Numbered from the stretch's first letter, positions 27,030 through 52,972 are shown. The stretch: DNA of 64,000 nt from an uncultured Planctomycetales bacterium (GCA_964489065.1 CAZAXH010000008.1:64130-128129); one strand, 5' to 3'. The notes: generated by a model not told the origin, from the sequence alone. Translations and numbers: made by a program.

Positions 27030-28640
27030 ATGCGAGTCGCGTTTATCAGCAATGCTTATGAGAGCATGGGATTCGAATATCTTTCTGCCGTTTTAAAAAA
27101 GGCCGGCCATGAAGTCAGATTATTCATGGACCCGGAACTTTTTAACGATTCCGACACGACGATTTCTCCATTGGGTAAATTTTTCGATTTCAAACCGCAG
27201 CTGCTCGCGGACCTGAAGCCCTTTAAACCTGATTTAGTCGCGTTTTCCGTCATCACGGATTCTTTCCTCTGGGCCGCCGACCTCGCCCGCCGGATTAAAA
27301 GCGAAATGAACGTGCCTATCATTTTCGGTGGCATTCACGCCACATCCAGCCCGGACAGCGTTATCGCCAACGATTGTATCGATATGGTTTGCCTGGGGGA
27401 GGGGGAATACGCCATGCTTGACCTGGTGGCAAGTATGGCCCTAGGGGAAACCGACTTGTCTATCAGGAACATCTGGTTTAAAGCGGATGGGAAAATCATC
27501 AAAAATGATATGCGCCCTTTAATTGAAGATTTGGACACGCTGCCTTTGGCTGATAAAAATCTTTATTATTCGGTCAGCCCTCATTTTCGCTTCTGCTATT
27601 ATACGCTGACCAACCGGGGCTGTCCGCACGCCTGCTCTTATTGTATCCATTCTTATTTAAGAAAATTGTACCGGGGGAAAGGGGCGTACTGCCGCCAGCG
27701 CAGCGTCGATAATGTCATTCAGGAGCTGGTGGACGCCAAGAAAACTTATAATATCTCCCTGGTTCGGTTCATGGATGACTGTTTCCCTTCTGAAATCGGC
27801 TGGCTGAACGAATTCAGGGAAAAATACGCCAGAGAAGTCGGCCTGCCTTTCCTGTGTTACCTTTATCCCTGTCAAGTCACCCCCGGGGTGCTGGAAGCCC
27901 TTGAGGCCAGCGGCTGTGTGGAGATTAATCTAGGGATTCAGTCCTGGGATGAAAATGTCCGAAAAAAAGTCTTGCACAGGATGGAAGACAATGAGACCCT
28001 GGAGAATTTGCTGGATATCTGTTGCCGGTTTAAATTCAGTTATGTCCTGGATATTATCAGCGGAATCCCAGGGGAAAATATTGATTCCCTGTTCGAATTC
28101 CTGCAAATGTGCCGGGCCAAAAAGTTTAAAAGCGTTAATTTTTACTGGTTAAAGTATTATCCGGCAGTCACCATCACACAGGAGGCGTATAAAAACGGCG
28201 TGATTACCCTCGAACAGGTTTCAAAAACAGCCGCGGGGAAGCTGGGCCGAAATTTCGCGGTGGGAGGGGATACCGAAAACGCCGATAGCCGGAAGCTCTA
28301 TCTTTTCTTCCTCCTCTGCCGGTGCCTCCCCGGAAGAACCGCCCGGTGGCTTTACCAAAAAAAGGCGTACCGTTTTATGCCGGGTTTTGTCCCTTTGCGG
28401 ATTTTATATTTTTTTTGGAATTTCCCGGCCAACAATTATGAACTCAAATACATTCATAAAATGCAAACGTTTTATTACCGGCATTTTATCCTGGCCAGGC
28501 TTAAACAGCATCTCGGGCAGGCCTGGCGTTCCCTGAAGAAATGCGCGCGGCGTTTATGGCCGAGCCAAGGACCTGTCCGGATTTCGCAAGGCGAAGTCCG
28601 GGTGGCCGGTGAGAAGTCAAAACCGACATTTAAGTCATGA
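27030..28640 (+). CDS. B12-binding (class B) radical SAM enzyme, array paralog 7 (with a C-terminal extension)
   Basis: It has MRVAFISNAYESMGFEYLSAVLKKAGH, GGIHATSSPD, CLGEGE and NRGCPHACSYC. An AAAGGA RBS lies upstream. The basic C-terminal tail is about 40 aa longer than in the other paralogs. Confidence 0.9.
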   Translation: MRVAFISNAYESMGFEYLSAVLKKAGHEVRLFMDPELFNDSDTTISPLGKFFDFKPQLLADLKPFKPDLVAFSVITDSFLWAADLARRIKSEMNVPIIFGGIHATSSPDSVIANDCIDMVCLGEGEYAMLDLVASMALGETDLSIRNIWFKADGKIIKNDMRPLIEDLDTLPLADKNLYYSVSPHFRFCYYTLTNRGCPHACSYCIHSYLRKLYRGKGAYCRQRSVDNVIQELVDAKKTYNISLVRFMDDCFPSEIGWLNEFREKYAREVGLPFLCYLYPCQVTPGVLEALEASGCVEINLGIQSWDENVRKKVLHRMEDNETLENLLDICCRFKFSYVLDIISGIPGENIDSLFEFLQMCRAKKFKSVNFYWLKYYPAVTITQEAYKNGVITLEQVSKTAAGKLGRNFAVGGDTENADSRKLYLFFLLCRCLPGRTARWLYQKKAYRFMPGFVPLRILYFFWNFPANNYELKYIHKMQTFYYRHFILARLKQHLGQAWRSLKKCARRLWPSQGPVRISQGEVRVAGEKSKPTFKS

Positions 28641-28680
28641 ACTCTGTTTTGTGCCTTTGTTAAGAGAGGAAAAAGGTTTT

Positions 28681-30291
28681 ATGCAGACCAATAAAGTGAT
28701 GGCCGCTTATTTAAAATACCGTTTTTTTCTCTTGCCGTTATTATTCATCGAGATTATACGCAATCCTTTTTATAAAAATTTTGTCGATTCCTCGGATTCC
28801 ATCCGCGAATTTTTTAAATACATTTTTTTGAAGTCAGCGCTCCTTAATAACATCACGGATAACGCTGTCGTCCTGATAAACGGCCAACTCCATCTGTTAT
28901 CCGGGTCCATCATCTCAATCCTGTTTTATGGGACGGTCGTTGTCGCGGTCAACGGCGTGGTTTGGTATCGCCAAAGCCGCGCGCCCGGAAGGCCTTCAGC
29001 GGCCATTTTCCCGCATTTAATTTGGACGGCCGTATTTTGTTTCGCCATTAAATCTTTCCCGCCGCTTACGGCTGTTACCTTAACATCCCTGCTGGGCTTT
29101 GTCTACATAGCGGATTTTGTGTTTTTTAACAACGATTCGTTTTTTTTAACCCGTATAAAAAGATCCTTCTTCTTTATATTCTCGCTGGCTGCCGTTTTTC
29201 TCGCAGAGTGGCTCTGCTTTCCTTTATACATAAAGTTTCTATATTTTCTTCAGGATAAAAAAATTACGCCTGCGAAAGCCCAGCTCATCCAATGGGGGCA
29301 TTATTCCCTCTTTGTTTTTTTTACCCTCCTCATGGTTTCTCCATTGAAGAATCCGTCTATCATTGACATGCAGCTTTTGCAGAAAGGCCGTTATTTCGAC
29401 CTGCAATATTATGAAAAAGGCGACGCCCTGATCGTCCTGAATGACTTTGAAGGGCAAGTGGAACGGATATCCGTGAAACATATGGCACCCCCGGCTGTGC
29501 TTTACAAATCCCGGATGTCAAGCGGGACAGAAGATTCGATGGGAGACTGGCTGGCCGTCAATAACGAAACACAGGAGCTGTATTTTACAGACCGCAGTTT
29601 TCATGAATTGATGATCCTGGATTTGACGACCCATGCCATCAAAAAGACCCTGTCATCGGAGATCTTTAACGCTGGGGACAATTTTATCACGTCCCTGAAT
29701 CACCACATTTATGGGATCACGGAAGAGGGGGCCTGTATTTATAAAATTGACCCGGAGAATGTTTCTCCCGTTGACAGCATGCTGAACTTTTGCATTCGGG
29801 AAGGAGAGGGGTCCATGCTCGTCCCGAATCCCCGGCTTAATGTTTTATACGCGACAAACTGGAATGAGCCCTCATCAAAATTTTTTATTTATAAAATTGA
29901 TGCCGACACTTTGGCCGTTCTGGGCCGGTTCCCCTTAAGCTCACCGGGGATCGTGATGGTTTCCGAAGATGGGGAACGGTTGCACTGCGGCGTCAGCACA
30001 GGGCCGGTGAATATTTTCACGATCGACGCCAGGAGCCTGCGACTGGTGGACCGCTTTCTGATTCCATACGGAACGGAAAACGGGGCCCTGGACAAAAAGC
30101 GGGAACTGTTGTTTGCCGCCAATCATTTCACCAACATTGTTGAAGTCATTGATCTGAAGACCAAAAAGACGGTTCAGTATTTTCGAGCCGGGGATGGGCG
30201 GTCTTACATCCGCAGGATCATTGTCGACGCCTCTAACAAACGGTTTTTTGTCACGGTTTTTAACGAAGGCATTTACGTGGGGGCCTATTAA
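28681..30291 (+). CDS. Polytopic membrane protein with a C-terminal beta-propeller (YVTN/YncE-like repeats)
   Basis: The ATG at 28681 is preceded by GAGAGGAAAAAGG; the track start at 28609 overlaps the upstream gene. The N-terminal half has several hydrophobic helices. The C-terminal half has repeated strand patterns (LYFTDRSFHELMILDLTTH, VLYATNW..FIYKIDADTL, VNIFTIDARSLRLV, NIVEVIDLKTKKTV, RFFVTVFNEGIYV). Confidence 0.6.
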   Translation: MQTNKVMAAYLKYRFFLLPLLFIEIIRNPFYKNFVDSSDSIREFFKYIFLKSALLNNITDNAVVLINGQLHLLSGSIISILFYGTVVVAVNGVVWYRQSRAPGRPSAAIFPHLIWTAVFCFAIKSFPPLTAVTLTSLLGFVYIADFVFFNNDSFFLTRIKRSFFFIFSLAAVFLAEWLCFPLYIKFLYFLQDKKITPAKAQLIQWGHYSLFVFFTLLMVSPLKNPSIIDMQLLQKGRYFDLQYYEKGDALIVLNDFEGQVERISVKHMAPPAVLYKSRMSSGTEDSMGDWLAVNNETQELYFTDRSFHELMILDLTTHAIKKTLSSEIFNAGDNFITSLNHHIYGITEEGACIYKIDPENVSPVDSMLNFCIREGEGSMLVPNPRLNVLYATNWNEPSSKFFIYKIDADTLAVLGRFPLSSPGIVMVSEDGERLHCGVSTGPVNIFTIDARSLRLVDRFLIPYGTENGALDKKRELLFAANHFTNIVEVIDLKTKKTVQYFRAGDGRSYIRRIIVDASNKRFFVTVFNEGIYVGAY

Positions 30292-30304
30292 CACAAAAAC
30301 TCAT

Positions 30305-31366
30305 ATGAGGACTCCCAAACATAATATTCTACGCACGATTCTGATGCTGCTCATCCCCGGGGCCGCCACCGCGGCTGTGTTATACCTCATTTTCAGGAAT
30401 CTTGATTTCAAGGTTCTGTTGATATCCCTCAAAAATTCCGACTATAGATTTCTCACGCTCGCTTTAGGGGTTTCCCTCACATGGAATATCGGTCTTTTCG
30501 GTCTACTCCGGAAAATAATCTGGCAATATATGGGATATGTTATTTCCCTGAAAGAATGCCTGTTTGTTCGGGCCGGGAGCCTGCCTTTTCAGGCGATCCC
30601 GTCTTTTAAGGACACAGGCTTAGCCATGGCGCTGTATTTAAAAAATTACCGCCATATGCCTTTAAGTGAAGGCATATTATCAAATATCATCGTTAATCTT
30701 TTTAGTCTGGTGGGCCTGTTTTTTTTAATTATACTGGGCTACTTGTTTTACAGACCCGGATTCCCAGAGGGAGGAGACCTCTTCCCTCATCTAACGGCCA
30801 GGATCGTGCCTGTCGTTCTGTTCCTTGGGTTCATTGCGTACGCCTTTTATTTTAACCAGGCCTTGGGGAAACGGATTCTTTTTTACGCTTGCTTCAAGAA
30901 AAAGACCCCTTTATTTAATATTTTTGAAAAAAATATTGATCTGTGGAAAATCCTTCCCAAACATAAAATTATCATTTTCTTTCTATTGACGACAATATAC
31001 AAACTGGCGGAAGTGCTTCTTTTTTGCGCGCTGGCGCAATCTTACCAACTTAGAGTCCCGCTGTCAGCCATTTTGCTGTATGTGCCTCTGGCCATGATGA
31101 TCAGTGAATCCCCGGCCAATATCAGCGGGATCGGGGTGAGGGAAGGAGCCCTGATTTTGTTTTTTTACAATTTCGCGCCCAAAGAAATTTTAGTCTCCGT
31201 GGCCGTTCTAATTTTTATTATAAACAGGATCGTGCCGATCATGGTCGGGTTCTTTTTCCTGGCCCCTTTCCTCTCCCGAACCCAGCTATCCTTTGCTAAA
31301 ATATGGGAACAGGTGCGGTTCATCTCAGGCGGAGGGCCGAAAAACTCTCCGGAGGCGTTATGCTGA
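30305..31366 (+). CDS. Flippase-like / LPG-synthase-TM (UPF0104) family integral membrane protein
   Basis: The N-terminus (LLIPGAATAAVLYLIFRNLDFKVLLISLKNSDYRFLTLALGVSL) and the late motif (PANISGIGVREGALILFF) are typical of this family. The start at 30305 was chosen to avoid overlap with the upstream gene. Confidence 0.7.
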   Translation: MRTPKHNILRTILMLLIPGAATAAVLYLIFRNLDFKVLLISLKNSDYRFLTLALGVSLTWNIGLFGLLRKIIWQYMGYVISLKECLFVRAGSLPFQAIPSFKDTGLAMALYLKNYRHMPLSEGILSNIIVNLFSLVGLFFLIILGYLFYRPGFPEGGDLFPHLTARIVPVVLFLGFIAYAFYFNQALGKRILFYACFKKKTPLFNIFEKNIDLWKILPKHKIIIFFLLTTIYKLAEVLLFCALAQSYQLRVPLSAILLYVPLAMMISESPANISGIGVREGALILFFYNFAPKEILVSVAVLIFIINRIVPIMVGFFFLAPFLSRTQLSFAKIWEQVRFISGGGPKNSPEALC

Positions 31367-32076
31367 ATACCAGTATTTCCTTGGTTGTCCCTGTTTATAA
31401 TGAAGCGGAAATCATCGCCGACACGTTGGCGGCCTTTACCCGGGAACTATCGGGTGTCTGCAGGGATTTTGAAATTATCGTTGTGGATGACGGGAGCACG
31501 GATGACACCGCGGCCATATTACGCCGGATTTCAGAAAATAACGCGCGTATCAAAGTTGTCTATAACCCGGTCAATGAAGGGAGCGGAGCCAGCGTCTGGA
31601 AAGGGTTCAAGAGCGCCGGCAAAGAACTGATCATCAGTAATTTCGCGGACCGCCCTTTTGCCCTTTCGGATTTAGAGGGGGTTATCCGGGCGGCCGACCT
31701 GAACAGCGCTGATTTTATCGTCGTGGTCAGACAGGACCGGAGCGCCAACACGGGCTATAGGAAAATAACGTCCCTGACGAATTACTGGCTTATCCGATTC
31801 CTGTTTAAGGTGAAGATATCTGATTTCCAGTTTGTCCAGGTCTATAAACGCCCGGTCATTCAGGGCATCCCTATCCGTTCCCGGGAGACGTTTGTCCCGC
31901 CAGAACTGATGATCAGGCTTCTGGACAAAGGCTTTCAGTATCGGGAAGTCATCCGGCCGTTTCATAAAAGACCGGGAGGGCAGTCGAAATGCGGCCGCCC
32001 GGGGAAAGTGTTGAGAAGTATGCTGGAAATCTTTAACTTTTGGATATATTGGGTCATCCTCAAAAAGCGAGATTGA
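31360..32076 (+). CDS. GT2-family polyprenyl-phosphate glycosyltransferase (DPM1/ArnC/CsbB-like)
   Basis: The ATG at 31360 follows a GGAGG RBS. It has SLVVPVYNEAEII, IIVVDDGSTDDT and a small soluble size, typical of polyprenol-P sugar synthases. It overlaps the upstream stop. Confidence 0.85.
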   Translation: MLNTSISLVVPVYNEAEIIADTLAAFTRELSGVCRDFEIIVVDDGSTDDTAAILRRISENNARIKVVYNPVNEGSGASVWKGFKSAGKELIISNFADRPFALSDLEGVIRAADLNSADFIVVVRQDRSANTGYRKITSLTNYWLIRFLFKVKISDFQFVQVYKRPVIQGIPIRSRETFVPPELMIRLLDKGFQYREVIRPFHKRPGGQSKCGRPGKVLRSMLEIFNFWIYWVILKKRD

Positions 32077-32077
32077 A

Positions 32078-32773
32078 ATGCGGATCAGTATCATGCAGCC
32101 CGGATATATTCCCTGGCTGGGATTTTTTGAACTTATGGCGCGGTGTGACGTGTTCGTCATCCTGGATGACGTGAGTTATACAAAACGTGATTGGCGCAGC
32201 CGCAACCGGATCCGCACAAAACAGGGATGGATATGGCTTACCGTCCCTGTCCTGTCCAAAAACCGGAGCGGACAGCTTATCCTGGAGACAAAAATCAACA
32301 ATGATAAAAACTGGCGTGCCGCGCATCTGAAGTGTCTTGAAATTCATTATTCCCAATCGGCTTATTTCAAGAAATATATTCATCCCTTTACAGACCTTTA
32401 CCGCCGGGAGTGGGAGCTTTTGATTGATCTGGATATGGCCATTATTTCCTTCCTCGCAGAAGCCCTGGACATCGGGACTCCGGTGATCCGTTCTTCCCAG
32501 TTGGGAATCCGTGGCCTGAACGGAAACCAGCGTATCCTTACCATTTGTGAGAAGCTGCAGTCCCGGGAACTCTATGACAGCCAAGGGGCGAAACCTTTTA
32601 TCGATCTGGCTCTTTTTCAGGAGAAAGGAATTCGTGTTGAATTTCAGGAATTCCGGCATCCCACATATCGTCAGGTTTATGCTCCTTTTTTACCTTTTAT
32701 GTCCGTGGTGGATTTGCTGTTTAATGAAGGTCCGCGTGGTAAAGAGATTATTTTAGGCAACCGACCTGCTTAA
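32078..32773 (+). CDS. WbqC-family protein
   Basis: The N-terminus (MRISIMQPGYIPWLGFFELMARCDVFVILDDVSYTKRDWRSRNRI) is the hallmark of the WbqC-like family found in O-antigen and glycan clusters. Confidence 0.8.
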   Translation: MRISIMQPGYIPWLGFFELMARCDVFVILDDVSYTKRDWRSRNRIRTKQGWIWLTVPVLSKNRSGQLILETKINNDKNWRAAHLKCLEIHYSQSAYFKKYIHPFTDLYRREWELLIDLDMAIISFLAEALDIGTPVIRSSQLGIRGLNGNQRILTICEKLQSRELYDSQGAKPFIDLALFQEKGIRVEFQEFRHPTYRQVYAPFLPFMSVVDLLFNEGPRGKEIILGNRPA

Positions 32774-32977
32774 AAACAGAGGAGGACAAAAGGGCCGCCC
32801 CCTGGCAAAAATTATGGAGCCCCATGCCCATAGGCATGTGGCTATTAACAATTCGTTTCGCGGAATGATCTGACCACCTTAATATATGTACGGACATCCC
32901 CGAAACAGAAAACCTTGTTAGTCCTCCGGCATTCATCCACGGGCACGCCTGCGGTCTTCTGCCAGGGGGATAAAAAT

Positions 32978-34765
32978 ATGAAAAAAAGACCCTGGCTAAC
33001 TTTAATAGTTTTTTCCGCCCTGACTTTTCTTTTCACATCCCCGGTATTTACCCATATTTCTTACTGGGGGCATCTGGACTGGGACCAATTCACGTTCTGG
33101 CACGCGGTGCCCCGAGAGATTATTTTGAGGCATGGGCAATTCCCTTTATGGAATCCCTATGCCAATGGGGGGAATGTTTTGCTGGCGCATCCGCAGTCGG
33201 CTTTTTTGTCCCCATTTTTTATTTTTGTGTTTCTGGGGGGGCCGATTTTAGGACTCAAGCTGGAAATCCTCGCGCATTTATGGCTGGGCCTGCTCGGCAT
33301 GCATAACCTTTCCCGTCATTTGGGCTTGAATTGGCGGGGCGCTTATTTAAGCGCATGCGTTTATATGCTGAATTCCGTATTTTTCTTGCACCTGGGAGAA
33401 GGGCAGATGGAATGGGTGGCGCTTGCTTTTGTCCCCTGGATTTTTATGTTTTATTTAAAAAGCATTCCGCCTGCCCGCACGCAGGGCCAGACTACCCCTG
33501 CCCTGAATCGTTTTTCTTTGGCCGGGGCTATCCTCACCCTGGGATTGATTCTCGTCACCGGGGTTTATGTGGTGAATTTGTTCCTTGTGTTTTTGTCCCT
33601 ATACGCCGGCTTTAAGTCTGTTCAGATGAAACGGGGACAGCCTGTCCTGATTTTGGGGGTTGCGTTTGCCGGCGCATGTCTTATCGGCGCTGTCAAATTT
33701 CTGCCTATGCTGGAATTTGTGCACCAGGTTCCCCGGTTAGTGGATCAACAAAGCGGAGTTAGCCCAGCGACCTTATGGACAATGCTGTTCAGCCGGAACC
33801 AGGCCTTCCTTGACTCACGGCTCTGGGAAACAACCTTTCTGCACGACGGAACCTATCGTTACGGCTGGCATGAATACGGAGCTTATATCGGATTTTTACC
33901 GTTTCTTTTATTCGTGGTGGGAGGGATGAGAGACTATAAAACCCGCTGGCCTTTACTGGGCTCGGCTGCCGTCTGCCTGCTTTTGGTGATGGGGCATTCT
34001 TCGCCTGTCAATCTTTGGGGAATTTTGCATCACCTCCCGGTTTATAGATCCTTGACTGTTCCGTCCCGGTTTATATTTTGCGTTATATTCCCGGTCGCTC
34101 TTTTATCCGGGTTCGGCCTCGCTCATGTCGAAAACAGCCTGCGCAAGTATGGCCGCGTGGTGTCGTGTCTAATCCTGATTTTCGTGACCTTAGATTTATG
34201 GCAGGTGAATGGGGTTTTGCTCAAAAACGTTTTCCGCATTCCGCCGCAACAAGTGGCCCGGGAAAGAATGTTCAGGCAACGCTACGCCGCCATTAATTTT
34301 TATAAGGAAAAATCCCTGAGCCGGAGTTCCCAGTACCCGATTTTTTTAAGCAACAGTGGTATTCTAGAGGCCTATGAATGCGCCGCGATCAAAAGGGGAG
34401 ACGTGAGAATCGCATCCGATCCGGGGTACCGGGGGGAAGCGTATCTGAAAAGCGGGAACGGCAGGATCCTGAATGTCCGTTTTTCACCCAACGCCATCGC
34501 AGTAAGCGTCGATATGGACAGGGATGACACCCTTATCGTGAATCAGAACTATTATACCGGCTGGCGCGTCAGAGCCAACGGAAACGATCTGCCGCCCGCT
34601 GTTTATAACGGCCTTACGGCCGCGCGCCTTAGCCCTGGCCGGCAGGATGTGGTCTTTTATTATTTACCGGGCAGTTTTATCCTGGGATTGTGCTTGAGCT
34701 TGAGTTTTTCCGTTACTCTGATTTTTTGGTTGCAGCGCGGGCTTAAAACGCCGGCAATTCCCTGA
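32978..34765 (+). CDS. YfhO-like GT-C fold membrane glycosyltransferase
   Basis: The ATG at 32978 follows AGGGGGA. The protein is polytopic, with GQFPLWNPYANGGNVLLAHPQSAFLSPFF resembling the YfhO family loop. A large C-terminal extracytoplasmic domain follows the last helices. Confidence 0.65.
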   Translation: MKKRPWLTLIVFSALTFLFTSPVFTHISYWGHLDWDQFTFWHAVPREIILRHGQFPLWNPYANGGNVLLAHPQSAFLSPFFIFVFLGGPILGLKLEILAHLWLGLLGMHNLSRHLGLNWRGAYLSACVYMLNSVFFLHLGEGQMEWVALAFVPWIFMFYLKSIPPARTQGQTTPALNRFSLAGAILTLGLILVTGVYVVNLFLVFLSLYAGFKSVQMKRGQPVLILGVAFAGACLIGAVKFLPMLEFVHQVPRLVDQQSGVSPATLWTMLFSRNQAFLDSRLWETTFLHDGTYRYGWHEYGAYIGFLPFLLFVVGGMRDYKTRWPLLGSAAVCLLLVMGHSSPVNLWGILHHLPVYRSLTVPSRFIFCVIFPVALLSGFGLAHVENSLRKYGRVVSCLILIFVTLDLWQVNGVLLKNVFRIPPQQVARERMFRQRYAAINFYKEKSLSRSSQYPIFLSNSGILEAYECAAIKRGDVRIASDPGYRGEAYLKSGNGRILNVRFSPNAIAVSVDMDRDDTLIVNQNYYTGWRVRANGNDLPPAVYNGLTAARLSPGRQDVVFYYLPGSFILGLCLSLSFSVTLIFWLQRGLKTPAIP

Positions 34766-36262
34766 TCACCAGAAATCACCCAACGGCGTTTGGGGATCGG
34801 ACACGCATCGAAACGGTTCAAAAGTGGAGGAACGGACCAAACGGTATTTCCCGGAAGAAGCCGTGCGGATATAATCAACGGCCTGAAAGCGGATATCGGT
34901 CCCGCTCCCTAAGACATGTTTCAATTTGTCCCGGAGCCCGTCTAAATCGGTTTCTTTTTGAAGGGCATCCTGCACGAATTTAAAATCAAACTGGTCCGGC
35001 GCGCGCTGGATCAATTGAAATAATTTAATGCCAGGATGGGACAAAGACAGCTCAAGAATTTCACGGGAAGGGATGGCATGCCCGTCAGCCGTCATGATTA
35101 AATCCTGAAGGCGTCCTTCCACCCGCATGAGGCGTGATGTCCGGCGGCAGGGGCAAGGGTCATCAGCAAAGGACCCGACGTCGCCGTGCTCGTAACGGAT
35201 AAAAGGCATGCCGTAAGAATTTAAGGCGGTCATAATAATATTAGCGAGTTCCCCGGGCCGGGCCGGCTCGCCGTTGGCGCGGATAAATTCCAGATAACAT
35301 TGGTCTTCCAGAACGTGCATCTGCCCGTTGCTCATCGCGCAGGAGCTGGCCACCCGTCCCAATTCACACCCGCCGTAACTTTGGAAAACCGGAGCGCGAA
35401 ACTGTTCGCCGATGAATTGCCGCATGCCCGGGAAAGACAACCCGGCGGTTAAGTCCAGTCCTTTAAGAGGCGGGATGGATATCTGTTTCTTCTGCATAAA
35501 ATTTGCCAGCAAATATAAATAGACAGGGTATCCGGAGATCATATCTGGCTTGAATTCCTGAACCACGCGGATATAATCCAGTATGTCTTCATCGGAGAAA
35601 TCAGAATTTAACGGCGGGGGGAAGCGGCGGTTGTTCAGCAATCCGTTGGTGATGTGCCGTTCCACAAAGATATAGTAAGCCTGCCTTGCGTGCTTGTGAC
35701 GGGACAAGACCATCTTAAGGTATTTGAGAAGAGGAATATCCGGGCTTTCTCCGGTCGGGAGGCAGGGCTGGCATTCATTCGGTGTGATCCGGACGACCGT
35801 GTCCCCCAGATCACACCCCATCAAGTGCCAGCTTCTAAGCTTGGAGGCGTACTTGTGATTAATATCGTCATGGTCGTGGACCAACATCAGGGACGCACCT
35901 GTGGTCCCGGATGTGTTAGAATAACGCATCCTCCCTAATGGATAATTATCTGCGACCGTGTGCCGGGGAAAATTTTCCCGGAGCTCTTTTTTCGTTACCA
36001 CCGGCAGTTTCCTGAAATCGGCTTCACATTTTATATATTCAGGTTTGATTCCGGCCTGATCGTACTTCTTCCTGTAAAAAGGCACGTGGTAATACGCATG
36101 GTTCACGAGGCTTAAGATGCGTCGCCATTGCCGGGCTCTGCGGGTTTCAACGGGCTCAAAGTCAGCCCGGATATAATCGTTATAATAGCACCACCCTTTA
36201 TTGGAGCTCATCCGCAGGGAGAGGGGCATGACGATTTTTTTTAGAAAATATTTCCGCATCAT
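34766..36262 (-). CDS. PaaK/CapK/F390-synthetase-like adenylate-forming ligase
   Basis: It has the AMP-binding P-loop SNTSGTTGASLMLVHD and QSYGGCELG, and its length and domain order match the phenylacetate-CoA ligase family. Its stop abuts the convergent YfhO-like stop with 0 nt between them. Confidence 0.75.
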   Translation of the reverse strand: MMRKYFLKKIVMPLSLRMSSNKGWCYYNDYIRADFEPVETRRARQWRRILSLVNHAYYHVPFYRKKYDQAGIKPEYIKCEADFRKLPVVTKKELRENFPRHTVADNYPLGRMRYSNTSGTTGASLMLVHDHDDINHKYASKLRSWHLMGCDLGDTVVRITPNECQPCLPTGESPDIPLLKYLKMVLSRHKHARQAYYIFVERHITNGLLNNRRFPPPLNSDFSDEDILDYIRVVQEFKPDMISGYPVYLYLLANFMQKKQISIPPLKGLDLTAGLSFPGMRQFIGEQFRAPVFQSYGGCELGRVASSCAMSNGQMHVLEDQCYLEFIRANGEPARPGELANIIMTALNSYGMPFIRYEHGDVGSFADDPCPCRRTSRLMRVEGRLQDLIMTADGHAIPSREILELSLSHPGIKLFQLIQRAPDQFDFKFVQDALQKETDLDGLRDKLKHVLGSGTDIRFQAVDYIRTASSGKYRLVRSSTFEPFRCVSDPQTPLGDFW

Positions 36263-37674
36263 ACCCCCAGGACTGTTTTCAGGATTGTTTTGGGATAATA
36301 TTTCAGATAAAAATAAAAACGTTTATCCTGATTTTTCATGGCAAGGACGAGCATCCCTGCCATGATCAGGACGTTAGGAACGAAGCGAAAAAATTTCCAC
36401 CGGTTCTTATGCCGCAGAAAAGAATTCACGGCCGGGGAAAACAACGGGAGTATCTTAAAATATTTTTGAAAACAGGCGTTAGGGATTTTCATGTCCGGGC
36501 TTCCGGCCACAGCGGAAAAAAAGTCCGACTGGTAACGGTCGTCGTTTTTAATGTCGGCTGGAGCCCATTCAAATATTTTCGCCTGACGGTAAAAAACCAG
36601 GTTATGGCATTTGATTCTGTTGAGGCCGCGCAAGTTAGCGTATATTCCCGCCGCCGTTATATGGTCGTCCAGGCTTTCTCCGGGAATGCCGAATAGATGG
36701 TCGGCATCATAGGCGAGATGGTGCCGGTCACATAGGGCAAAGGCTTTTGCAACCACCGCATTGTGTTCCTCCCGGGACAGGACGCGCCGTTTAAGGGATT
36801 CATTCAGTGTCTGCACCCCGAACTCCACGCAATAGCAACGGCTTTCTTTGAGCATCCCGGCCATTTCCTCGTCGAAACTTCCAGCTTTGGCAAAACATTT
36901 ATAGGGCAGGCCAATCTGCTTGCGGTATTGCGCCAGGAATTGCCGAAGCCAGTCCTTGTTTAAAGCAAAAATGGGATCTTTAAAAATGACTTCTCTCATG
37001 CGGTAACGTTTTTGCGCCTCTTGCAGTTCCGCGATCACGTGTTCAGGGAGCCGTCTCCGGCAATAATGCGCGCCCAGGGTGTCCTTTAACACCGTTTCAA
37101 GGCAGTAAGAGCAATGGGCGGGGCAGCCCTTGCTGGTAAACACCATGTAACTGTCCCGGAAGTTCACGTAACGTTCAAATAAGCTTTTATCCGGCAACGG
37201 CAGTTTATTGACATCAACCACTCCGGGAATCCGGAAAACCACCGGTGCCCCCGTGTCATATCGTTCACGCAGGAAAACGTCGAATGCGAGTTCCGGTTCA
37301 CCGATAAGGGTGAAATCAACCCCGCAGGGCGCCGGGAGATCGATAACGGATAAATAAACTGTTTTGACTCCGGGCAGAGATGTTTTGATGCCCTCCGCGA
37401 AACCCTCTATCCCAGGTTTATTCAAATGAATAGCATCATAAAAGACAACAAGGTCAGGGTTCAGGGTTATTATTTTTTTTATGGACTTTTGGGGCCGGGA
37501 AAAAATTTTATGAAGGCGGGGAGAAGAAATAATGTTATCGGAAAGGCCGAAACTATCCTGGTCATAAATCAGGGCTGTTTCATGCCCGTAACCCCTGGCA
37601 ATCGCCGAAAGGGTCTCCGTGACAAGGGCATCCTGCAAAAAGTAACGGCCTTTGTAAAAAAATGCGATTTTCAT
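36259..37674 (-). CDS. Class-B-like radical SAM enzyme with a degenerate N-terminal B12-type domain
   Basis: It has the MKIAFFYKG start, SKGCPAHCSYC (CxxxCxxC), VEFGVQTLNE and a hydrophobic C-terminal tail (FRFVPNVLIMAGMLVLA). The GG.H.T motif of the other paralogs is absent. Confidence 0.8.
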   Translation of the reverse strand: MKIAFFYKGRYFLQDALVTETLSAIARGYGHETALIYDQDSFGLSDNIISSPRLHKIFSRPQKSIKKIITLNPDLVVFYDAIHLNKPGIEGFAEGIKTSLPGVKTVYLSVIDLPAPCGVDFTLIGEPELAFDVFLRERYDTGAPVVFRIPGVVDVNKLPLPDKSLFERYVNFRDSYMVFTSKGCPAHCSYCLETVLKDTLGAHYCRRRLPEHVIAELQEAQKRYRMREVIFKDPIFALNKDWLRQFLAQYRKQIGLPYKCFAKAGSFDEEMAGMLKESRCYCVEFGVQTLNESLKRRVLSREEHNAVVAKAFALCDRHHLAYDADHLFGIPGESLDDHITAAGIYANLRGLNRIKCHNLVFYRQAKIFEWAPADIKNDDRYQSDFFSAVAGSPDMKIPNACFQKYFKILPLFSPAVNSFLRHKNRWKFFRFVPNVLIMAGMLVLAMKNQDKRFYFYLKYYPKTILKTVLGV

Positions 37675-37978
37675 TTTTGACTCAATCGTCCTTTTTAAGC
37701 CGGATGGTTCCTGGCAGACCAGCGGTGAGCATGAGCGCCCGGTGACAAGACAATGTTTATAATACTAGAAACCAGAAAGCTAAACCAGTAAAAACTTAAA
37801 ACGATTACCGGTGTTGTGCTGTCATCAAAGCCGGGAAGTTATCAGGTCGTGAATTTATAATTTTTTTCTATAAATATGATTATTAATATTCAAATAACAT
37901 TTAAAGTATCGTAAAGAATTCCTGCTATAATAAAAGGCCGTAGATAAAAATTGTTTTCAACATTTCTTTAAGCGGGCT

Positions 37979-39181
37979 GTGATGAATTACCATTTTTCAG
38001 AAAAAATAAGGTTTATTTTCGGCCTTCTGGTGTGCCTTCTTTTTATTTTTGCTGATCGAATCATGACGGTTAAGGACCGCCCTGAAATTCTCGCCCCCGG
38101 CGTGAAAGTACCATTTATAAATAGTTCTGATATAGATATCCCAGACACCGCCCTTTTGGAATATCAAAGTTATATCCAAAGAACCGGACACCACGATTTG
38201 AAACAGCTCAAGGCATTGCTTTATAACCGGCTTGGGCATAACGATATTCGTGTGCGGATGAATGCCGTGGAAGTCTTGGGGGAAGTGGATGACCCTGATG
38301 TCCTGGACCGGCTTTGGAAAATTTACCTTCATGATGACGAGGCGTTTATAAGAAATTCAGCCATAGCCGGGATGCTTAACCACGGAACCCCCGAGGTTTT
38401 AGAGTTTCTTACGCAATCCATATCAGACACCGATCCAGAAGTCCGAAGGCAATCTGTAGAAGGGTGTATGGTCTTTGCCGATGCGGCTCTCCAAGGCCTC
38501 ATAGAAACGCGGTTTGCGCAGGAAACTGACACCCTGAACCGGATCGCGCTGGCAGCGCTTTTGTATAAGATCGGCGATAAGGAAAAACTGGCCTATCTCA
38601 CGGACGTTCTGCTTCATGAGCCGTCCCTGGAGTTCCGTATCTACACGGCCCATATGTTGCAGGATTCCGGCGTCAAAATTAACCCGGAAGACATAAAAGA
38701 AATTTTCGTTCAGGAGACTCACCCGGAAGTCAAAATCTGGCTGGCCGCTCTTTTGGCCGGACAAGGAGACACCTCCGGATTAGATGACTTAAAACATATC
38801 GTGTCCGGGGACGCTGATCCCGTTTTAAAATCTTCAGCTGCTCAGGCTTTGAACGCTTTAGGCGAACAGGCCTATGTTTATCCTTATTTATTGGATCTTT
38901 TAAAAACCGGCGATGAGGCCATCCGGGAGCGGGCTCTTGAGGATTTAGTGGATTTTAAAGATTATCCGCTATTACCGGTTTTAAGCCGAGTCCTCAAGGA
39001 TGACCCTAGCATAACGGTCAGGGAAATCGCCGCCTGGGTGATGGGCGAAAGAAAAGACATCGAGGCGCTGCCCTGTCTGGAGCAAGGGCTCAATGATAAA
39101 AGCGCTTTTGTGCGGACCGGCGTTATTGCCGCGCTTTATAAAATTTTATCAGCTCAGGAGCTGAAACAAGGGAAAAAATAA
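37979..39181 (+). CDS. HEAT-repeat (PBS-lyase-like) protein with an N-terminal membrane anchor
   Basis: The N-terminal helix is IRFIFGLLVCLLFIFA. It is followed by repeated motifs of about 30 aa (VRMNAVEVLGEVDDP, IRNSAIAGML, VRRQSVEG, VREIAAWVMGE, VRTGVIAAL). The start is GTG at 37979 or ATG at 37982. Confidence 0.7.
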   Translation: MMNYHFSEKIRFIFGLLVCLLFIFADRIMTVKDRPEILAPGVKVPFINSSDIDIPDTALLEYQSYIQRTGHHDLKQLKALLYNRLGHNDIRVRMNAVEVLGEVDDPDVLDRLWKIYLHDDEAFIRNSAIAGMLNHGTPEVLEFLTQSISDTDPEVRRQSVEGCMVFADAALQGLIETRFAQETDTLNRIALAALLYKIGDKEKLAYLTDVLLHEPSLEFRIYTAHMLQDSGVKINPEDIKEIFVQETHPEVKIWLAALLAGQGDTSGLDDLKHIVSGDADPVLKSSAAQALNALGEQAYVYPYLLDLLKTGDEAIRERALEDLVDFKDYPLLPVLSRVLKDDPSITVREIAAWVMGERKDIEALPCLEQGLNDKSAFVRTGVIAALYKILSAQELKQGKK

Positions 39182-39369
39182 AACCGGCGTCCATAAATTT
39201 TTTTTAAAAGACTTTGCGCTCTACGTGATACGCGCCCGCTGCCCGGGATGGAGATTTTAAGGATTCAATGGGTTTATGATACAATGAACATGGGGATGTT
39301 TAAGAATTAGACCATAAAATACTGATGTGATATGACGGGGATATCCGATAATACCAGAAAGCAGGGGGC

Positions 39370-40875
39370 ATGAAGTTATCTCTGATTTTCAATCCCTTCT
39401 CCTATAAGGCGCACGAAGAAAATCTTAAAATCGTCCAGAAATATTTCGGCCTATTTCCCCCTTTAAGTCTGGCCTGGGTGGCCGCCATCGCGGAAAAGTC
39501 CGGGCATCAGGTCCAGCTAATCGACGCCCGGACTTTAAAACTCTCCATGGAAGAGACTTTTCAACAGGTCCGGGCTTTTAATCCGGACATTATGGGATTT
39601 ATGATGACGACCTATATGTTTCAGGACACGTTGTCCTGGATCAAATTCTTAAAAGCCCGTATCTCCGTCCCGGTCGTGGTGGGAGGATATAATCTCCGGG
39701 TGTACCCCAGAGAGTCTTTGTCTCATCCGGAAATAGATTTCGGCGTGGTCGAGCACGCTTACTACACCATCCCGCGTCTTCTGGAAGAACTGGAGAGCGG
39801 TCGTCATGATTTCACCACAGTGCCCGGCCTGGTTTATAAAAAAAACGGATTAGTTCTAGTCACTCCGCACCCGCAAAAAATCAACTTTAACGATTTCCCC
39901 AACCCGGCGAGGCACCTTTTGCCGAATCATCTTTACGCCGAATTCCCGACCGAACGGAGGAACTTCACGGTGATGGTGACGTCCCTGGGATGCCCTTACG
40001 GCTGTACCTTTTGTGAAGCGGGGCGTACGCCGTATAATCCCCGTTCTCCGGAAAAAGTCGTGGCGGAAATGGAGGAATGTTATTTGCATTACGGGATCAG
40101 GGAAATTGACATTTTTGATTATGAATTCACGGGAATCCGTGACCGGGTTATGAAAATCTGCCAGATGATTAAGGAAAAAAAATGGGACATGATCTGGGCC
40201 TGCCGGTCCCGCATTGACACCGTTGACGCGGAATTGCTCTCTGAAATGAAACAGGCCGGCTGCCGGAGGATATATTTCGGGCTGGAATCAGGGCGGCAGG
40301 ACATCCTGGACAGTGTCCACAAAGGATATTCCCTGAAACAAGTCCGGGACATTATTGCCGCCTGCTCCTCTCTGGGAATCCGGACCCTGGGGTTCTTTCT
40401 GGTCGGCGCGCCGGGTGACACGAGGGAAACGGTTAAAGAAACGGTCGCGTTCGCCAAAAAACTCAACTTGGATTATGTGCAGTTTTCCAAATGCCTAGCC
40501 AAACCTTTAACCCCACTCTGGAAAGACATGGTCGTCCAGGAGCAGAAAGACTACTGGGGCGACTGGGTTCTGGGAACGGAAACAGACCGGGAGTTGCCCC
40601 GCCCCTGGACCGAATTGACAAACCAGGAGGTTGATCAGCTGGCCCGATGGGCCTATATTTCGTATTACGCGCGGCCTTCCTTTTTATGGAAGCATTTGCT
40701 GAAAATCGGCTCATTCCTGGAACTGAAACGCAAGGTGCTTGCGCTTATCGATATGTTATGGAAACAGGAACCCTATTCGCGGCCGGAAAAGGATTTTAAG
40801 GCTTTTAACGAGAATCCGGCAGCCCGGGTCCGGAACTATCAGGCGGCCCCAAAACACACGGCCCCGCAAAGGTGA
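39370..40875 (+). CDS. B12-binding (class B) radical SAM enzyme, second subfamily
   Basis: It has FPPLSLAWVAAIAEKSGHQVQLID (B12 domain), VVGGYNLRVYP, SLGCPYGCTFC and GLESG. An AGGGGG RBS lies upstream. Confidence 0.9.
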   Translation: MKLSLIFNPFSYKAHEENLKIVQKYFGLFPPLSLAWVAAIAEKSGHQVQLIDARTLKLSMEETFQQVRAFNPDIMGFMMTTYMFQDTLSWIKFLKARISVPVVVGGYNLRVYPRESLSHPEIDFGVVEHAYYTIPRLLEELESGRHDFTTVPGLVYKKNGLVLVTPHPQKINFNDFPNPARHLLPNHLYAEFPTERRNFTVMVTSLGCPYGCTFCEAGRTPYNPRSPEKVVAEMEECYLHYGIREIDIFDYEFTGIRDRVMKICQMIKEKKWDMIWACRSRIDTVDAELLSEMKQAGCRRIYFGLESGRQDILDSVHKGYSLKQVRDIIAACSSLGIRTLGFFLVGAPGDTRETVKETVAFAKKLNLDYVQFSKCLAKPLTPLWKDMVVQEQKDYWGDWVLGTETDRELPRPWTELTNQEVDQLARWAYISYYARPSFLWKHLLKIGSFLELKRKVLALIDMLWKQEPYSRPEKDFKAFNENPAARVRNYQAAPKHTAPQR

Positions 40876-40879
40876 CGAT

Positions 40880-42124
40880 ATGATTTTTAAACCGATCCCC
40901 CGGCAAAAATCCTGCAACACTTTTCGCGACCTCTGGCGTGTTTTCTGCCTCCTTGCAACAAAACGTTTCTGGCAGGGGGAAGAAACACGAGAATTTGAAA
41001 CTCTCTTCGCCGAAAAATATGGCATGAAATACGCTCTGGCCACGGGGTCCTGCCGCTCTGCTTTCGCGCTTCTTCTTGATGCGCTGGAGATCAAAAGCGG
41101 GGATGAAGTCATTTTACCGGCTTATAACATGCCGGCTTTCCCGAAAATATTAAAATGCAAGGGGATCCAACCGGTTTTTATCGATATTAATGAAAATACC
41201 CTGAATATGGATGAACGCCTGATTGGACCCAAAATCAGCTCGAGAACCAAAGCCATCGTCGCGGTTCATCTTTTCGGGAACGCCTGCCCTATGGACGAAA
41301 TCCTGTCCCTAGCCCGCAAACATAACCTATATGTCATTGAGGATTGCGCCAACGCGTGGGGAGCGTGTTTCCGATCCCGGTATGTCGGCACTTTTGGGGA
41401 CGCGGCCTGTTTCAGCCTTGGGGCCACAAAAGACATCCCGACTTTCGGCGGCGGGATGATTTTGACAAACAACCAAACCCTCTTTGACAAACTGGCTTGT
41501 ATTTATGAACAACAAACGAGTTGTCCCTCTTGGGGGAATGTCCTGATAGACCTCGCCAGGAACATGATAATGTTACTGATGGGCTTCGGCCCTTTCTACA
41601 GCCTGCTGGTTTTTCCTGTCCAGTTCCTTTGTTCCCGGGCCGGGTTTGACCTGATGGATTATCTCATCGAGGAAAAAGACCGTCCTCTGACGGCTGTCCC
41701 GCAAAAAAAATATGTTAATTTTCAAGCTGTCGTGGGCCTGCATCAATTCAAGCCCGGAGAACAAAACCAGCAGCGGAGGATATGGAACGCCCGGATTCTC
41801 AACGCCCGGCTGCGCGATATCCCGGAGGTCCATATCCCGCAAACAGCGCCGGAGGGAGATCACACATACTGGAATTACCCGCTCCTCGTTCCCCGACGCG
41901 GGCTTTTAGTCACAAGGTTGCTCAAACACGGGATCAGCACAAAAATTCTGGATACTTATAACTGTAATCAATTAAAAACTTTTAGTGATTTCCGGCAAGA
42001 CTGCCCCCGGGCAGACCGGATCGCGAACACAGTCCTGATTTTGCCGGTATACCATCATTTGCACGAAACCGAAATGAATTTCATCGCGGAAACCATAAAA
42101 AAAGAATGCCAGTGTCTCGTTTAA
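40880..42124 (+). CDS. DegT-like PLP aminotransferase-fold protein (long subtype with a hydrophobic insert)
   Basis: The ATG at 40880 follows AAAGGTGA; the track start at 40739 overlaps the upstream gene. It has ATGSCRSAFALLL, IEDCANAWGACFRSRYVG and FSLGATKDIPTFGGG. The hydrophobic insert is ARNMIMLLMGFGPFYSLLVFPVQFLCSRAGF. Confidence 0.78.
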   Translation: MIFKPIPRQKSCNTFRDLWRVFCLLATKRFWQGEETREFETLFAEKYGMKYALATGSCRSAFALLLDALEIKSGDEVILPAYNMPAFPKILKCKGIQPVFIDINENTLNMDERLIGPKISSRTKAIVAVHLFGNACPMDEILSLARKHNLYVIEDCANAWGACFRSRYVGTFGDAACFSLGATKDIPTFGGGMILTNNQTLFDKLACIYEQQTSCPSWGNVLIDLARNMIMLLMGFGPFYSLLVFPVQFLCSRAGFDLMDYLIEEKDRPLTAVPQKKYVNFQAVVGLHQFKPGEQNQQRRIWNARILNARLRDIPEVHIPQTAPEGDHTYWNYPLLVPRRGLLVTRLLKHGISTKILDTYNCNQLKTFSDFRQDCPRADRIANTVLILPVYHHLHETEMNFIAETIKKECQCLV

Positions 42125-42133
42125 ATTAAAAAG

Positions 42134-43612: not shown

Positions 43613-44613
43613 AAAAAAGCACCATCCTTCTTATAGTGAAAAATTTATTGCGCGCCCGGCTCTACAAAGAAAACATCCCAGTTATCGTCAGCTGGGCTAT
43701 TACCTATAAATGCAACGCGCGGTGTCAATATTGCGAAAACTGGACTTGCCCCACTGACAAGGAACTGACTAGGGAAGAAATCATGGCGGTTATTGATGAC
43801 CTGGCGGCCATGGGCACAGCGGTCATATCGTTGACGGGAGGGGAGCCTTTGTTGCGCCCGGATCTGGCGGATATCATTGATCATGCCGTGCACCGGAAAA
43901 TCTATGTGTCGGTTAATACCAATGGGATTCTCGTATCCCAACATCTTCCGGTTCTTAAAAAAGCGGACCGCGTGACGGTTAGTTTTGACGGGCCGGAAGC
44001 CGTGCATGATTCCATCCGCGGCCCCGGCACGCACGGCCTTGTCCTGAAGGCGATAGAAATTTTGGTGGAGAACGGGTGTGCGCCGGCATTAAACACCGTG
44101 TTGACAAAAATGAACGCCCCCTACGTTGACGACATCCTTAAAACCGCCGGACAATATAACGTTAAAGTATCATTTCAACCCGTTTCTCTTTGTTTACTCG
44201 AGAGTAAAAAAGAAAATCCGCTCGCGCCCGCGTCGGAAGATTATCAGGCGGCCATCAATAAGATCATAACCGCAAAAAGAAAAGGCAACCCGCATATCTT
44301 AAATTCACTGGGAGGGTTAAATCACCTTGCTCACTGGCCCTGTCCGGCCGCCATCGCGTGTTCGGCCGGGAGCGTGCATTTCCGTATCGAACCGGACGGG
44401 TTGATGACAAACTGCAGCCGGCAGTTTCTTTTAAAATCCAAGCACAGCCAAAGCGCGGATATCCGGGAAGGGGGTGTCCTCAGGGCTGTCCGTCAGTTGA
44501 AAGTCGTCCCGTGCTGTGAATGCTGGTGCGCCTCTACCGTGGAAACAAATTTAGCGACGTCTTTTAACGTTTCATGTGCTTGGAATATGCTGAAACGCGC
44601 CCGGGGGCATTAA
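43609..44613 (+). CDS. Radical SAM enzyme with a SPASM/twitch-like C-terminal domain
   Basis: It has ITYKCNARCQYCENW (CxxxCxxC), LTGGEPLL, CSAGSVHFRIEPDGLMTNC (C-x12-G-x4-C) and PCCECWC. The ATGA overlap is at 43609/43612. Confidence 0.85.
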   Translation: MKKSTILLIVKNLLRARLYKENIPVIVSWAITYKCNARCQYCENWTCPTDKELTREEIMAVIDDLAAMGTAVISLTGGEPLLRPDLADIIDHAVHRKIYVSVNTNGILVSQHLPVLKKADRVTVSFDGPEAVHDSIRGPGTHGLVLKAIEILVENGCAPALNTVLTKMNAPYVDDILKTAGQYNVKVSFQPVSLCLLESKKENPLAPASEDYQAAINKIITAKRKGNPHILNSLGGLNHLAHWPCPAAIACSAGSVHFRIEPDGLMTNCSRQFLLKSKHSQSADIREGGVLRAVRQLKVVPCCECWCASTVETNLATSFNVSCAWNMLKRARGH

Positions 44614-44620
44614 AAACCTT

Positions 44621-45982: not shown

Positions 45983-46006
45983 GAAAGACGCCCGTATTGT
46001 AACGTC

Positions 46007-49071: not shown

Positions 49072-49081
49072 GGATTTGAAT

Positions 49082-51804: not shown

Positions 51805-51935
51805 CCGCCTCTCGAGAATAATGGTCTTGCGTATCAAGTATACTATACAATAATTAAGTTTAAATGAAAGGAGAATAATCCTTATCTCCTTTTTCAGAAA
51901 CCGGCAAGAAATTCAAGGAATCAAAGTCATAAACC

Positions 51936-52969: not shown

Positions 52970-52972
52970 AGT

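Follow-up and report, generated by a model that had tools for sequence, protein, structure and literature searches.

A putative three-component glycosylation gene set with UPF0104 and WbqC partners inside an rSAM-rich Omnitrophota gene cluster

In silico analysis of a 64,000-nucleotide stretch of DNA from an uncultured Planctomycetales bacterium (GCA_964489065.1, CAZAXH010000008.1:64130-128129), referred to below in its full length as the window, revealed four consecutive genes at positions 30305-34765 of the plus strand, designated A, B, C and D. They encode, in this order, a UPF0104 membrane protein, a glycosyltransferase of family 2 (GT2), a WbqC-family protein and a predicted membrane glycosyltransferase of the GT-C type, and their homologues carry the name Candidatus Omnitrophota. 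It is judged somewhat probable that genes A, B and D represent an Omnitrophota form of the three-component scheme of extracytoplasmic glycosylation, composed of a polyprenyl-phosphate GT2, a flippase and a GT-C enzyme acting outside the membrane. The logic of such glycosylation is already known, and the four genes taken alone amount to a routine and well-founded annotation. What stands out here is the presence of UPF0104 and WbqC as partners, together with the conserved embedding of the genes in an Omnitrophota cluster exceptionally rich in radical S-adenosylmethionine (rSAM) enzymes.

The four genes close a run of 20 co-directional genes on the plus strand (6366-34765), in which neighbouring genes overlap or are separated by at most 40 nucleotides (nt), the sole exception being a gap of 204 nt before gene D. 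The elements of the locus are as follows:

30305-31366, plus strand: gene A, a stand-alone polytopic membrane protein of the LPG_synthase_TM/UPF0104 (PplT) family, 353 amino acids (aa), Pfam PF03706
31360-32076, plus strand: gene B, a predicted GT2 of the polyprenyl-phosphate glycosyltransferase type with an ArnC/DPMS/GtrB-like catalytic and interface region, 238 aa, Pfam PF00535
32078-32773, plus strand: gene C, a soluble WbqC-family protein, 231 aa, Pfam PF08889
32774-32977, no strand: the spacer between genes C and D, 204 nt
32978-34765, plus strand: gene D, a predicted GT-C-fold membrane glycosyltransferase, 595 aa, with an N-terminal polytopic module, a beta-sandwich at about residues 420-562 and a last transmembrane (TM) helix at 565-590

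The start codons given for these genes in the original prediction have been confirmed and are better choices than those of the longest open reading frames (ORFs); independent gene calls on public contigs carrying an identical GT2 yield the same products of 353, 238, 231 and 595 aa. The ATG of gene A at 30305 lies 13 nt past the upstream stop. The ATG of gene B at 31360 has a GGAGG in front of it and overlaps the stop of gene A in the sequence ATGCTGA, the ATG of gene C at 32078 is placed 1 nt beyond the stop of gene B, and the coding start of gene D at ATG 32978 reads MKKRPWLTLIVF. The spacer in front of gene D is species-specific in length: it measures 204 nt here, whereas its counterparts in L001 and L010, the orthologous loci, have 30-34 nt. 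It contains a GC-rich hairpin (32782-32802) with a T-tail on the minus strand only. A promoter and terminator scan of 28000-39500 found no terminator-like site on the plus strand of the spacer and no promoter better than those in shuffled sequence, and Rfam gave zero matches across the whole window, the spacer included. The gene spacing suggests that the genes are co-transcribed as an operon.

The four family assignments of the original prediction (LPG_synthase_TM, Glycos_transf_2, WbqC and YfhO) hold in hidden Markov model searches. Gene B matches Glycos_transf_2 (PF00535) with 82.2 bits (E 5e-23) and, as a single sequence searched against the PDB, finds ArnC first (E 3.7e-15). A profile of the B family, built from 36 sequences over 237 positions, aligns with ArnC at E 6.5e-36 (positions 4-224 of 237 on ArnC residues 8-225), with DPMS at E 2.6e-28 (positions 3-227 on DPMS 22-247) and with GtrB at E 4e-26 (positions 4-153). 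Chondroitin and heparosan synthases, TarS-like enzymes and other GT2s align with it at about positions 4-120 only, that is, over the N-terminal nucleotide-binding half. A near-full-length alignment, extending beyond this half into the acceptor/interface region, is obtained only with ArnC and DPMS; the protein does not group with the processive synthases, in agreement with the original prediction. On these alignments gene B is assigned to the polyprenyl-phosphate GT2 subgroup, as a relative of ArnC and not an ArnC orthologue: its best NCBIfam match is ArnC (NF007986), with 63.3 bits versus an equivalog cut-off of 529. Residues D44, D48, D97, D155 and E182 are invariant, and D97 corresponds in the alignment to the second Asp in the DAD motif of ArnC. 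The protein possesses no TM helix (no 19-residue segment reaches a Kyte-Doolittle value of 1.6 or more) and ends in a hydrophobic helix (...MLEIFNFWIYWVILKK). Polyprenyl-phosphate GT2s devoid of TM helices exist, such as PpgS and the eukaryotic DPM1, so that C-terminal TM helices are not universal in the subgroup; gene B resembles these short enzymes. A metagenome scan with the B-family alignment, which represents a generic GT2 pattern, returned only GT2s of at most 40% identity, and at most 34% where most of gene B was covered.

Gene D is assigned to the GT-C superfamily because of its modelled fold and a conserved acidic residue in the first loop. The model shows a GT-C fold with high model confidence; TM1 comprises residues 5-24, and a loop helix (35-52) starts at the motif D34-W-D36-Q. 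In the gene D family (47 sequences) the motif is DWDQ, with D36 invariant and D34 conserved in at least 90%. Asp34 and Asp36 would thus lie in the first loop after TM1, predicted to face outwards from the orientation suggested by the basic N-terminus MKKRP. In the fold search, the enzymes with monophosphate-linked donors (AftD, AftA, PMT and ArnT) score level with oligosaccharyltransferases (OSTs). No meaningful match was obtained in a PDB sequence search with the gene D profile. The location of the gene next to a polyprenyl-phosphate-type GT2 points to a polyprenyl-(di)phosphate-linked sugar as the possible donor.

While the GT-C assignment of the 32978 product stands, its description as YfhO-like does so in part only. 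The match to YfhO (PF09586) exceeds the Pfam cut-off (32.7 versus 28.5 bits) but is confined to residues 499-574, i.e. 76 residues aligned with positions 758-835 of the 835-position model. When Pfam was applied to the 47 relatives, GT-C_AftD was matched by 26 of them and YfhO by 23, all weakly, and NCBI labels some members of the family 'YfhO family protein'. Judged from these matches, membership of the YfhO family is marginal and doubtful. The possibility that gene D is a paralogue of two further polytopic proteins of the window, starting at 44621 and 46007, was rejected, the profile comparison giving a probability below 1% and no detectable sequence relation. The GT-C family of gene D is widespread: 457 relatives have been confirmed by tblastn among GTDB species representatives. 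They include members of DPANN archaea (Woesearchaeota, Nanoarchaeota, Undinarchaeales, Altiarchaeota) and of a large number of bacterial phyla, and most of them have no rSAM gene as a neighbour (e.g. L014, L018-L022, L028, L031, L036, L053, L055 and L060). One protein, P0056 (984 aa), consists of a D-family GT-C fused to HEAT repeats and echoes the separate HEAT-repeat gene of the window at 37979-39181.

The product of gene A matches PF03706 over its full length (model positions 3-302 of 302; 78.2 bits, E 1e-21, cut-off 33.4) and contains about eight hydrophobic segments by hydropathy, and it has no NCBIfam match. A PDB sequence search gave no match with the single sequence and two chance-level matches with the profile (E 0.18-0.27), and an AlphaFold2 model built from just seven sequences reached a predicted local distance difference test score of 53.3, too low for a fold comparison with the flippase domain of MprF. 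By a word-based search only six close relatives were found, every one from orthologous loci. An exhaustive profile search of a representative library, which carries no genomic context, identified 1278 relatives that likewise bear PF03706, nearly all of them stand-alone proteins of 300-340 aa. The longer relatives are methyltransferase fusions, with no GT2 fusions among them; in P0311, P0317 and P0395, which are among the closest relatives, UPF0104 is fused to class I S-adenosylmethionine-dependent methyltransferase domains. A flippase role has been predicted for UPF0104; in archaea, its conserved gene neighbours are an AglD-like GT2 and a GT-C of the PMT/STT3-like type, and a fusion to AglD exists as well (PMC5898192). 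The same role is predicted in the PplT preprint, in which glycosyltransferase fusions of UPF0104 are listed (10.1101/2022.03.11.483950). Gene A is a candidate for the flippase of the lipid-linked sugar and/or for a membrane dock of the GT2 devoid of TM helices.

The fourth gene, C, matches PF08889 at 247.8 bits (E 1e-73, cut-off 21.3; model positions 1-215 of 218, full-length) and has no sequence relative in the PDB. No biochemical function of the WbqC family was found in the literature. The gene is located directly 3' of the B-family GT2 in the window, L001, L010, L170 (61% identity) and L172 (52% identity). No other neighbour of gene B is as constant as WbqC, and the stable element is the GT2-WbqC pair, often accompanied by UPF0104, rather than a glycosylation module with WbqC added to it, as originally described.

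The conservation of the gene set was examined in GTDB species representatives, with 80 D-family loci being compared. A complete A-B-C-D set occurs in close relatives only. In L001 (gene D identity 57%) and L010 (69%) the order is rSAM array, membrane/propeller protein, A, B, C and D, followed beyond D by a convergent CapK-like ligase and rSAM pair, a HEAT protein, a B12-type rSAM (B12-rSAM) and a DegT gene. All B-family loci examined (45-60% identity) lie inside or after an rSAM/DegT array and differ in their partners. L170 retains the membrane/propeller protein, A, B and C; in L172, B and WbqC precede an unknown protein of 544 aa and a PMT_2 GT-C, with a second GT2 beside an LPG_synthase_TM gene; in L008 and L009, B is followed by more GT2 genes and Wzy_C-TPR proteins; and in L171 gene B stands alone within the array. 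The membrane transferase is interchangeable. Since the full set is confined to close relatives and the GT-C is exchanged for PMT_2 or Wzy_C-TPR proteins, the quartet is not the fixed module that had been proposed. There are also 12 loci, not belonging to the close A-B-C-D clade, in which the D-family gene has an ArnC-like GT2 of full length at a distance of 60 nt to 6 kb, and most of them are labelled as other than Omnitrophota (e.g. Woesearchaeota, Altiarchaeales, Deltaproteobacteria). This proximity supports a functional pairing of GT2 and GT-C throughout the family of gene D.

The association with rSAM genes is likewise real and recurrent in related Omnitrophota loci, as the original prediction had it for the window. 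Where gene D identity is 39% or higher, 13 of 14 loci have at least one rSAM gene, and up to nine, within 10 kb; only 9 of the 72 more distant D loci do so. Fusion proteins are present in related loci: a B12-binding rSAM joined to a GT2 in L009 (16096-18357, 753 aa) and an rSAM-SPASM protein joined to a GT4 in L004 (2872-5310, 812 aa). Because rSAM proximity recurs and rSAM-glycosyltransferase fusions are encoded in related loci, a shared pathway for the rSAM and glycosylation genes is likely. The recurrent link, fusions included, supports but does not prove a radical tailoring of the sugar or glycan. In the reading followed here the tailored molecule would be the sugar or the acceptor; the radical chemistry could act at the level of the nucleotide sugar, the lipid-linked sugar, the acceptor or a lipid. 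The literature searched contained no account of such rSAM/GT-C clusters for Omnitrophota.

Several known systems show the combination of a polyprenyl-phosphate GT2, a flippase and a GT-C acting outside the membrane, namely CsbB/GtcA/YfhO and GtlA/GtcA/GtlB in the lipoteichoic acid glycosylation of Bacillus and Listeria and GtrA/GtrB/GtrC in O-antigen glucosylation (PMC7389260, PMC5836110, PMC8035078). Gene D shares with YfhO the Pfam-matched C-terminal element, composed of the end of the extracytoplasmic domain and the last TM helix, and differs in length (595 aa versus an 835-position model, of which the last 78 positions only are matched). The main differences from the CsbB and GtrABC systems relate to the flippase candidate, which is a UPF0104 protein of about 350 aa instead of a small GtrA/GtcA, to the GT2 devoid of TM helices, to the additional WbqC and membrane/propeller proteins, and to the 18 surrounding rSAM genes. 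No scanned product of the window matched a small flippase of the GtrA/GtcA or ArnE/F type; the family scan covered ORFs of at least 150 aa, and those below 150 aa were not scanned individually. Of the three-component logic put forward originally, the joint encoding of B and D is upheld; the flippase role of UPF0104 is a prediction from the literature (PMC5898192). By analogy, the UPF0104 protein is a candidate for the slot of the small flippase. The aminoarabinose pathway of lipid A (ArnB/ArnC/ArnD/ArnE-F/ArnT) differs in that gene B is not an ArnC orthologue by score (63 vs 529 bits), that ArnA, ArnD and ArnE/F are missing here, and that the Arn pathway has no rSAM counterpart.

A further analogy is archaeal. 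AglD (a fusion of GT2 and UPF0104) acting with the GT-C AglS combines the same three families, and so does the neighbourhood of MJ_1079/MJ_1080 that Makarova et al. predicted in 2015, which consists of arCOG00899, a GT2 resembling AglD and a PMT/STT3-like protein (PMC5898192). The overlapping genes A and B look like a split AglD fusion. In contrast to AglD, the present locus is bacterial and consists of separate genes, UPF0104 followed by GT2. The A-B-D trio would therefore be a bacterial counterpart of an arrangement already predicted in archaea. Another trio of the same type decorates arabinogalactan with galactosamine in mycobacteria: PpgS (Rv3631), Rv3632 and Rv3779 comprise a short polyprenyl-phosphate GT2 devoid of TM helices, a small GtrA-like membrane helper and a GT-C, with no rSAM. 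Gene B scores 47 bits versus the PpgS NCBIfam cut-off of 370. Glycolipid systems, GpgSDF of Pseudomonas aeruginosa (glucosamine-phosphatidylglycerol) and HexSDF of C. difficile, also pair a glycosyltransferase with a UPF0104 protein, the proposed flippase of the lipid product; they differ, as does the Hpn pathway, in their glycolipid end products, in the presence of a deacetylase and in the lack of a GT-C, and GpgS is a GT4. In the hopanoid glucosamine/cyclitol ether pathway HpnI/J/K/L, the sugar head group is the target of a B12-type rSAM, HpnJ. An assignment of the present genes to the HpnI/J/K/L type was rejected, no Hpn model coming near its cut-off (HpnB 30 bits for gene B, HpnL no match).

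The data establish the structure of the genes, their family and fold assignments and their conserved association in the genomes. In the scheme that we infer from these data, the enzymes would act in a sequential order. At the cytoplasmic face, gene B would transfer a sugar from a nucleotide sugar to polyprenyl phosphate. Its attachment to the membrane would probably be provided by the hydrophobic helix at its C-terminus, by the UPF0104 protein A, with which it is translationally coupled, or by both. The donor would probably be an amino sugar produced by the DegT aminotransferases and altered by rSAM enzymes of the cluster, and WbqC (C) may have either the donor or the lipid-linked sugar as its substrate. 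The UPF0104 protein would then flip the lipid-linked sugar, and gene D, or another membrane transferase in the relatives, would move it to an acceptor in the envelope outside the cytoplasmic membrane. One lipid-linked donor may also feed other GT-C-like proteins of the cluster. The arrangement of the genes is consistent with this scheme, B and D being 0.9 kb apart on the same strand, with the stop of A overlapping the start of B and a single nucleotide between B and C.

Several observations weigh against the scheme. The flippase activity of stand-alone UPF0104 proteins is a literature prediction and unproven, and this includes GpgF of GpgSDF, whose activity is unverified (PMC12713373). Most B-family and D-family loci have no gene A, which is therefore not an obligatory partner; gene D was not detectable by tblastn within 10 kb in L170, and PMT_2 or Wzy_C-TPR proteins stand in for it in relatives. 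Gene B has none of the C-terminal TM helices of ArnC, GtrB and DPMS and falls far under the ArnC equivalog cut-off, and gene D is set off in this genome by its 204-nt gap.

The genes surrounding the quartet form a cluster of about 45 kb, running to about position 50962, in which the module sits in the middle with rSAM genes on either side. The original placement at the end of an rSAM operon is correct for the 6366-34765 run and does not apply to the cluster as a whole. Gaps between genes across 6366-53716 are at most about 300 nt. In total, the window contains 18 rSAM genes with 19 rSAM domains between 7414 and 49071. The neighbouring features are:

6366-28640, plus strand: upstream run of 15 tightly packed genes, comprising two DegT-type aminotransferases and 13 rSAM genes
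6366 and 9781, plus strand: the DegT-type sugar aminotransferases of this run (Pfam and NCBIfam scans)
7414 to the end of the same run, plus strand: its rSAM genes, one SPASM (7414), four Tes/HMPTM zinc-ribbon, seven B12-binding and one MiaB-like (16762)
28681-30291, plus strand: membrane/propeller protein, 536 aa (the same size on public contigs), with about 5-6 TM segments in its N-terminal part (hydropathy) and a beta-propeller-like domain at the C-terminus
34766-37674, minus strand: convergent pair of a CapK/PaaK-like adenylate-forming ligase (34766-36262) and an rSAM (36259-37674), by NCBIfam and Pfam
37979-50962, plus strand: second co-directional run of HEAT-repeat, B12-rSAM, DegT, B12-rSAM, small rSAM, PMT_2, 531-aa protein, B12-type rSAM and AsnB-like amidotransferase genes
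44621-45982, plus strand: PMT_2 GT-C, weakly Agl23-like (Pfam/NCBIfam)
46007-47602, plus strand: polytopic protein of 531 aa (hydropathy), no Pfam match
52085-53716, plus strand: ABC-2 type exporter pair (ATPase and ABC2_membrane, by Pfam), just downstream of the cluster

None of the rSAM enzymes of the cluster attains any NCBIfam equivalog cut-off. The zinc-ribbon (Tes/HMPTM) type is represented by five domains, at 12428-15184, 8403, 11049 and 22637 on the plus strand, the product of the gene at 12428 being a tandem double of 918 aa. In NCBIfam they come closest to TrsS and to Tes, the tetraether lipid synthase, without attaining a cut-off; Tes-type enzymes join lipid tails by C-C bonds in archaea. 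Amid the B12-rSAM array lies a MiaB/RimO-like rSAM of the methylthiotransferase type (UPF0004 and rSAM domains, 16762-18114, plus strand; 212 bits versus a subfamily cut-off of 251), a possible sign that the pathway includes a methylthiolation or the insertion of sulfur. The three DegT aminotransferases of the cluster score best with PseC, LegC, ArnB and DesI in NCBIfam, all below cut-off.

The membrane/propeller protein gives weak Pfam matches to Lactonase/YncE propellers. Its gene is directly 5' of the UPF0104 gene in L001, L010 and L170 too, and it may be an associated component, a fifth member of the module. The CapK/PaaK-like and rSAM pair is syntenic in L001, L010 and L170 by tblastn, with a CapK_C domain in the orthologues. 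The second run includes the PMT_2 GT-C (44621) and the 531-aa polytopic protein (46007) without a GT2 or flippase of its own, and these two proteins might use the lipid-linked donor made by gene B. The ABC-2 pair suggests a possible exporter of a glycan that could be the acceptor, and is regarded as a candidate member of the system only; an ABC2_membrane/ABC_tran pair also ends the related locus L172 (14631-15501). A stand-alone Methyltransf_23 gene is located on the minus strand at 50959-51837.

Three other explanations of the gene set have been considered. One, which we regard as unlikely, is a module for a glycolipid head group, comparable to GpgSDF, HexSDF and MprF, in which B would glycosylate a phospholipid, diacylglycerol or other lipid instead of polyprenyl phosphate, A would flip the glycolipid, once made, to the outer leaflet, the head group or the tails would be tailored by WbqC and the rSAM enzymes, and D would be a separate envelope enzyme. 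UPF0104 is indeed best documented with lipid end products, in the flippase domain of MprF, in GpgF, whose gene adjoins a glycosyltransferase and a deacetylase (PMC12713373), and in the PplT preprint; the rSAM enzymes of the cluster score best with lipid-acting families (Tes, HpnJ, ladderane B12-rSAM), all below cut-off, and gene A is missing from most D-family loci. Yet the B family is related in full length specifically to polyprenyl-phosphate GT2s, the glycolipid synthases of GpgSDF are GT4 enzymes, three DegT genes are present in the cluster, along with two or three GT-C-like membrane proteins whose donor would have to be a lipid-phosphate-sugar, and ArnC-like GT2 genes recur beside D-family genes in distant lineages. 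A conventional polysaccharide pathway is about as improbable. Here B would be a chain-building GT2 working on an undecaprenyl-diphosphate-linked oligosaccharide, D a polymerase, ligase or OST using the diphosphate-linked glycan, and A and WbqC accessory proteins, with export through the nearby ABC-2 transporter. The B profile, unlike chain-building GT2s, matches ArnC and DPMS past the nucleotide-binding half; neither a priming phosphoglycosyl transferase nor Wzx or Wzy is found among the window ORFs of at least 150 aa; and the users of monophosphate-linked donors named above score level with the OSTs for gene D, which also argues against this explanation.

Less probable still is a mere adjacency without a shared substrate, in which the rSAM array would tailor a lipid tail, cofactor or peptide and genes A-D would form part of a composite envelope island. 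It is favoured by the failure of every cluster rSAM to attain an NCBIfam equivalog cut-off, by the rarity of rSAM genes near D-family genes outside the Omnitrophota-like clade (9/72 loci), and by the lipid-type rSAM homologues (Mss, Hbs) reported in Omnitrophota metagenome-assembled genomes (PMC11868695; 10.1101/2023.10.20.563219). Against it, the association recurs despite rearranged gene orders and protein identities of only 40-60%, the DegT genes are interleaved with rSAM genes, adjacent genes overlap or lie no more than 40 nt apart, and single polypeptides in related loci fuse rSAM and glycosyltransferase domains.

The three-component glycosylation scheme remains the preferred reading, and its parts are of interest beyond this locus. 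A UPF0104/PplT protein in the flippase slot beside a GT2 devoid of TM helices and a GT-C would be a compact system for testing the UPF0104 flipping prediction, and the tight pairing of gene C with this GT2 narrows the search for the activity of WbqC, a widespread protein of O-antigen clusters. To our knowledge, Omnitrophota have no cultured, genetically tractable members. The presence of the module within Omnitrophota clusters with up to about 20 rSAM domains and rSAM-glycosyltransferase fusions points to an undescribed envelope sugar or glycolipid chemistry. A broader and more tentative possibility, held with less confidence than the glycosylation scheme itself, is that the supercluster of about 45 kb builds an undescribed envelope glycoconjugate of Omnitrophota. 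In it, an amino-sugar unit or lipid-linked intermediate would be remodelled by about 19 rSAM domains, through C-methylations and/or C-C bonds made by B12-type and Tes-like enzymes, and delivered via a polyprenyl-phosphate carrier, a UPF0104-type flippase and interchangeable GT-C/Wzy_C transferases. If true, this would be a glycan tailoring pathway dominated by radical S-adenosylmethionine enzymes and without precedent in known cell-envelope biosynthesis.

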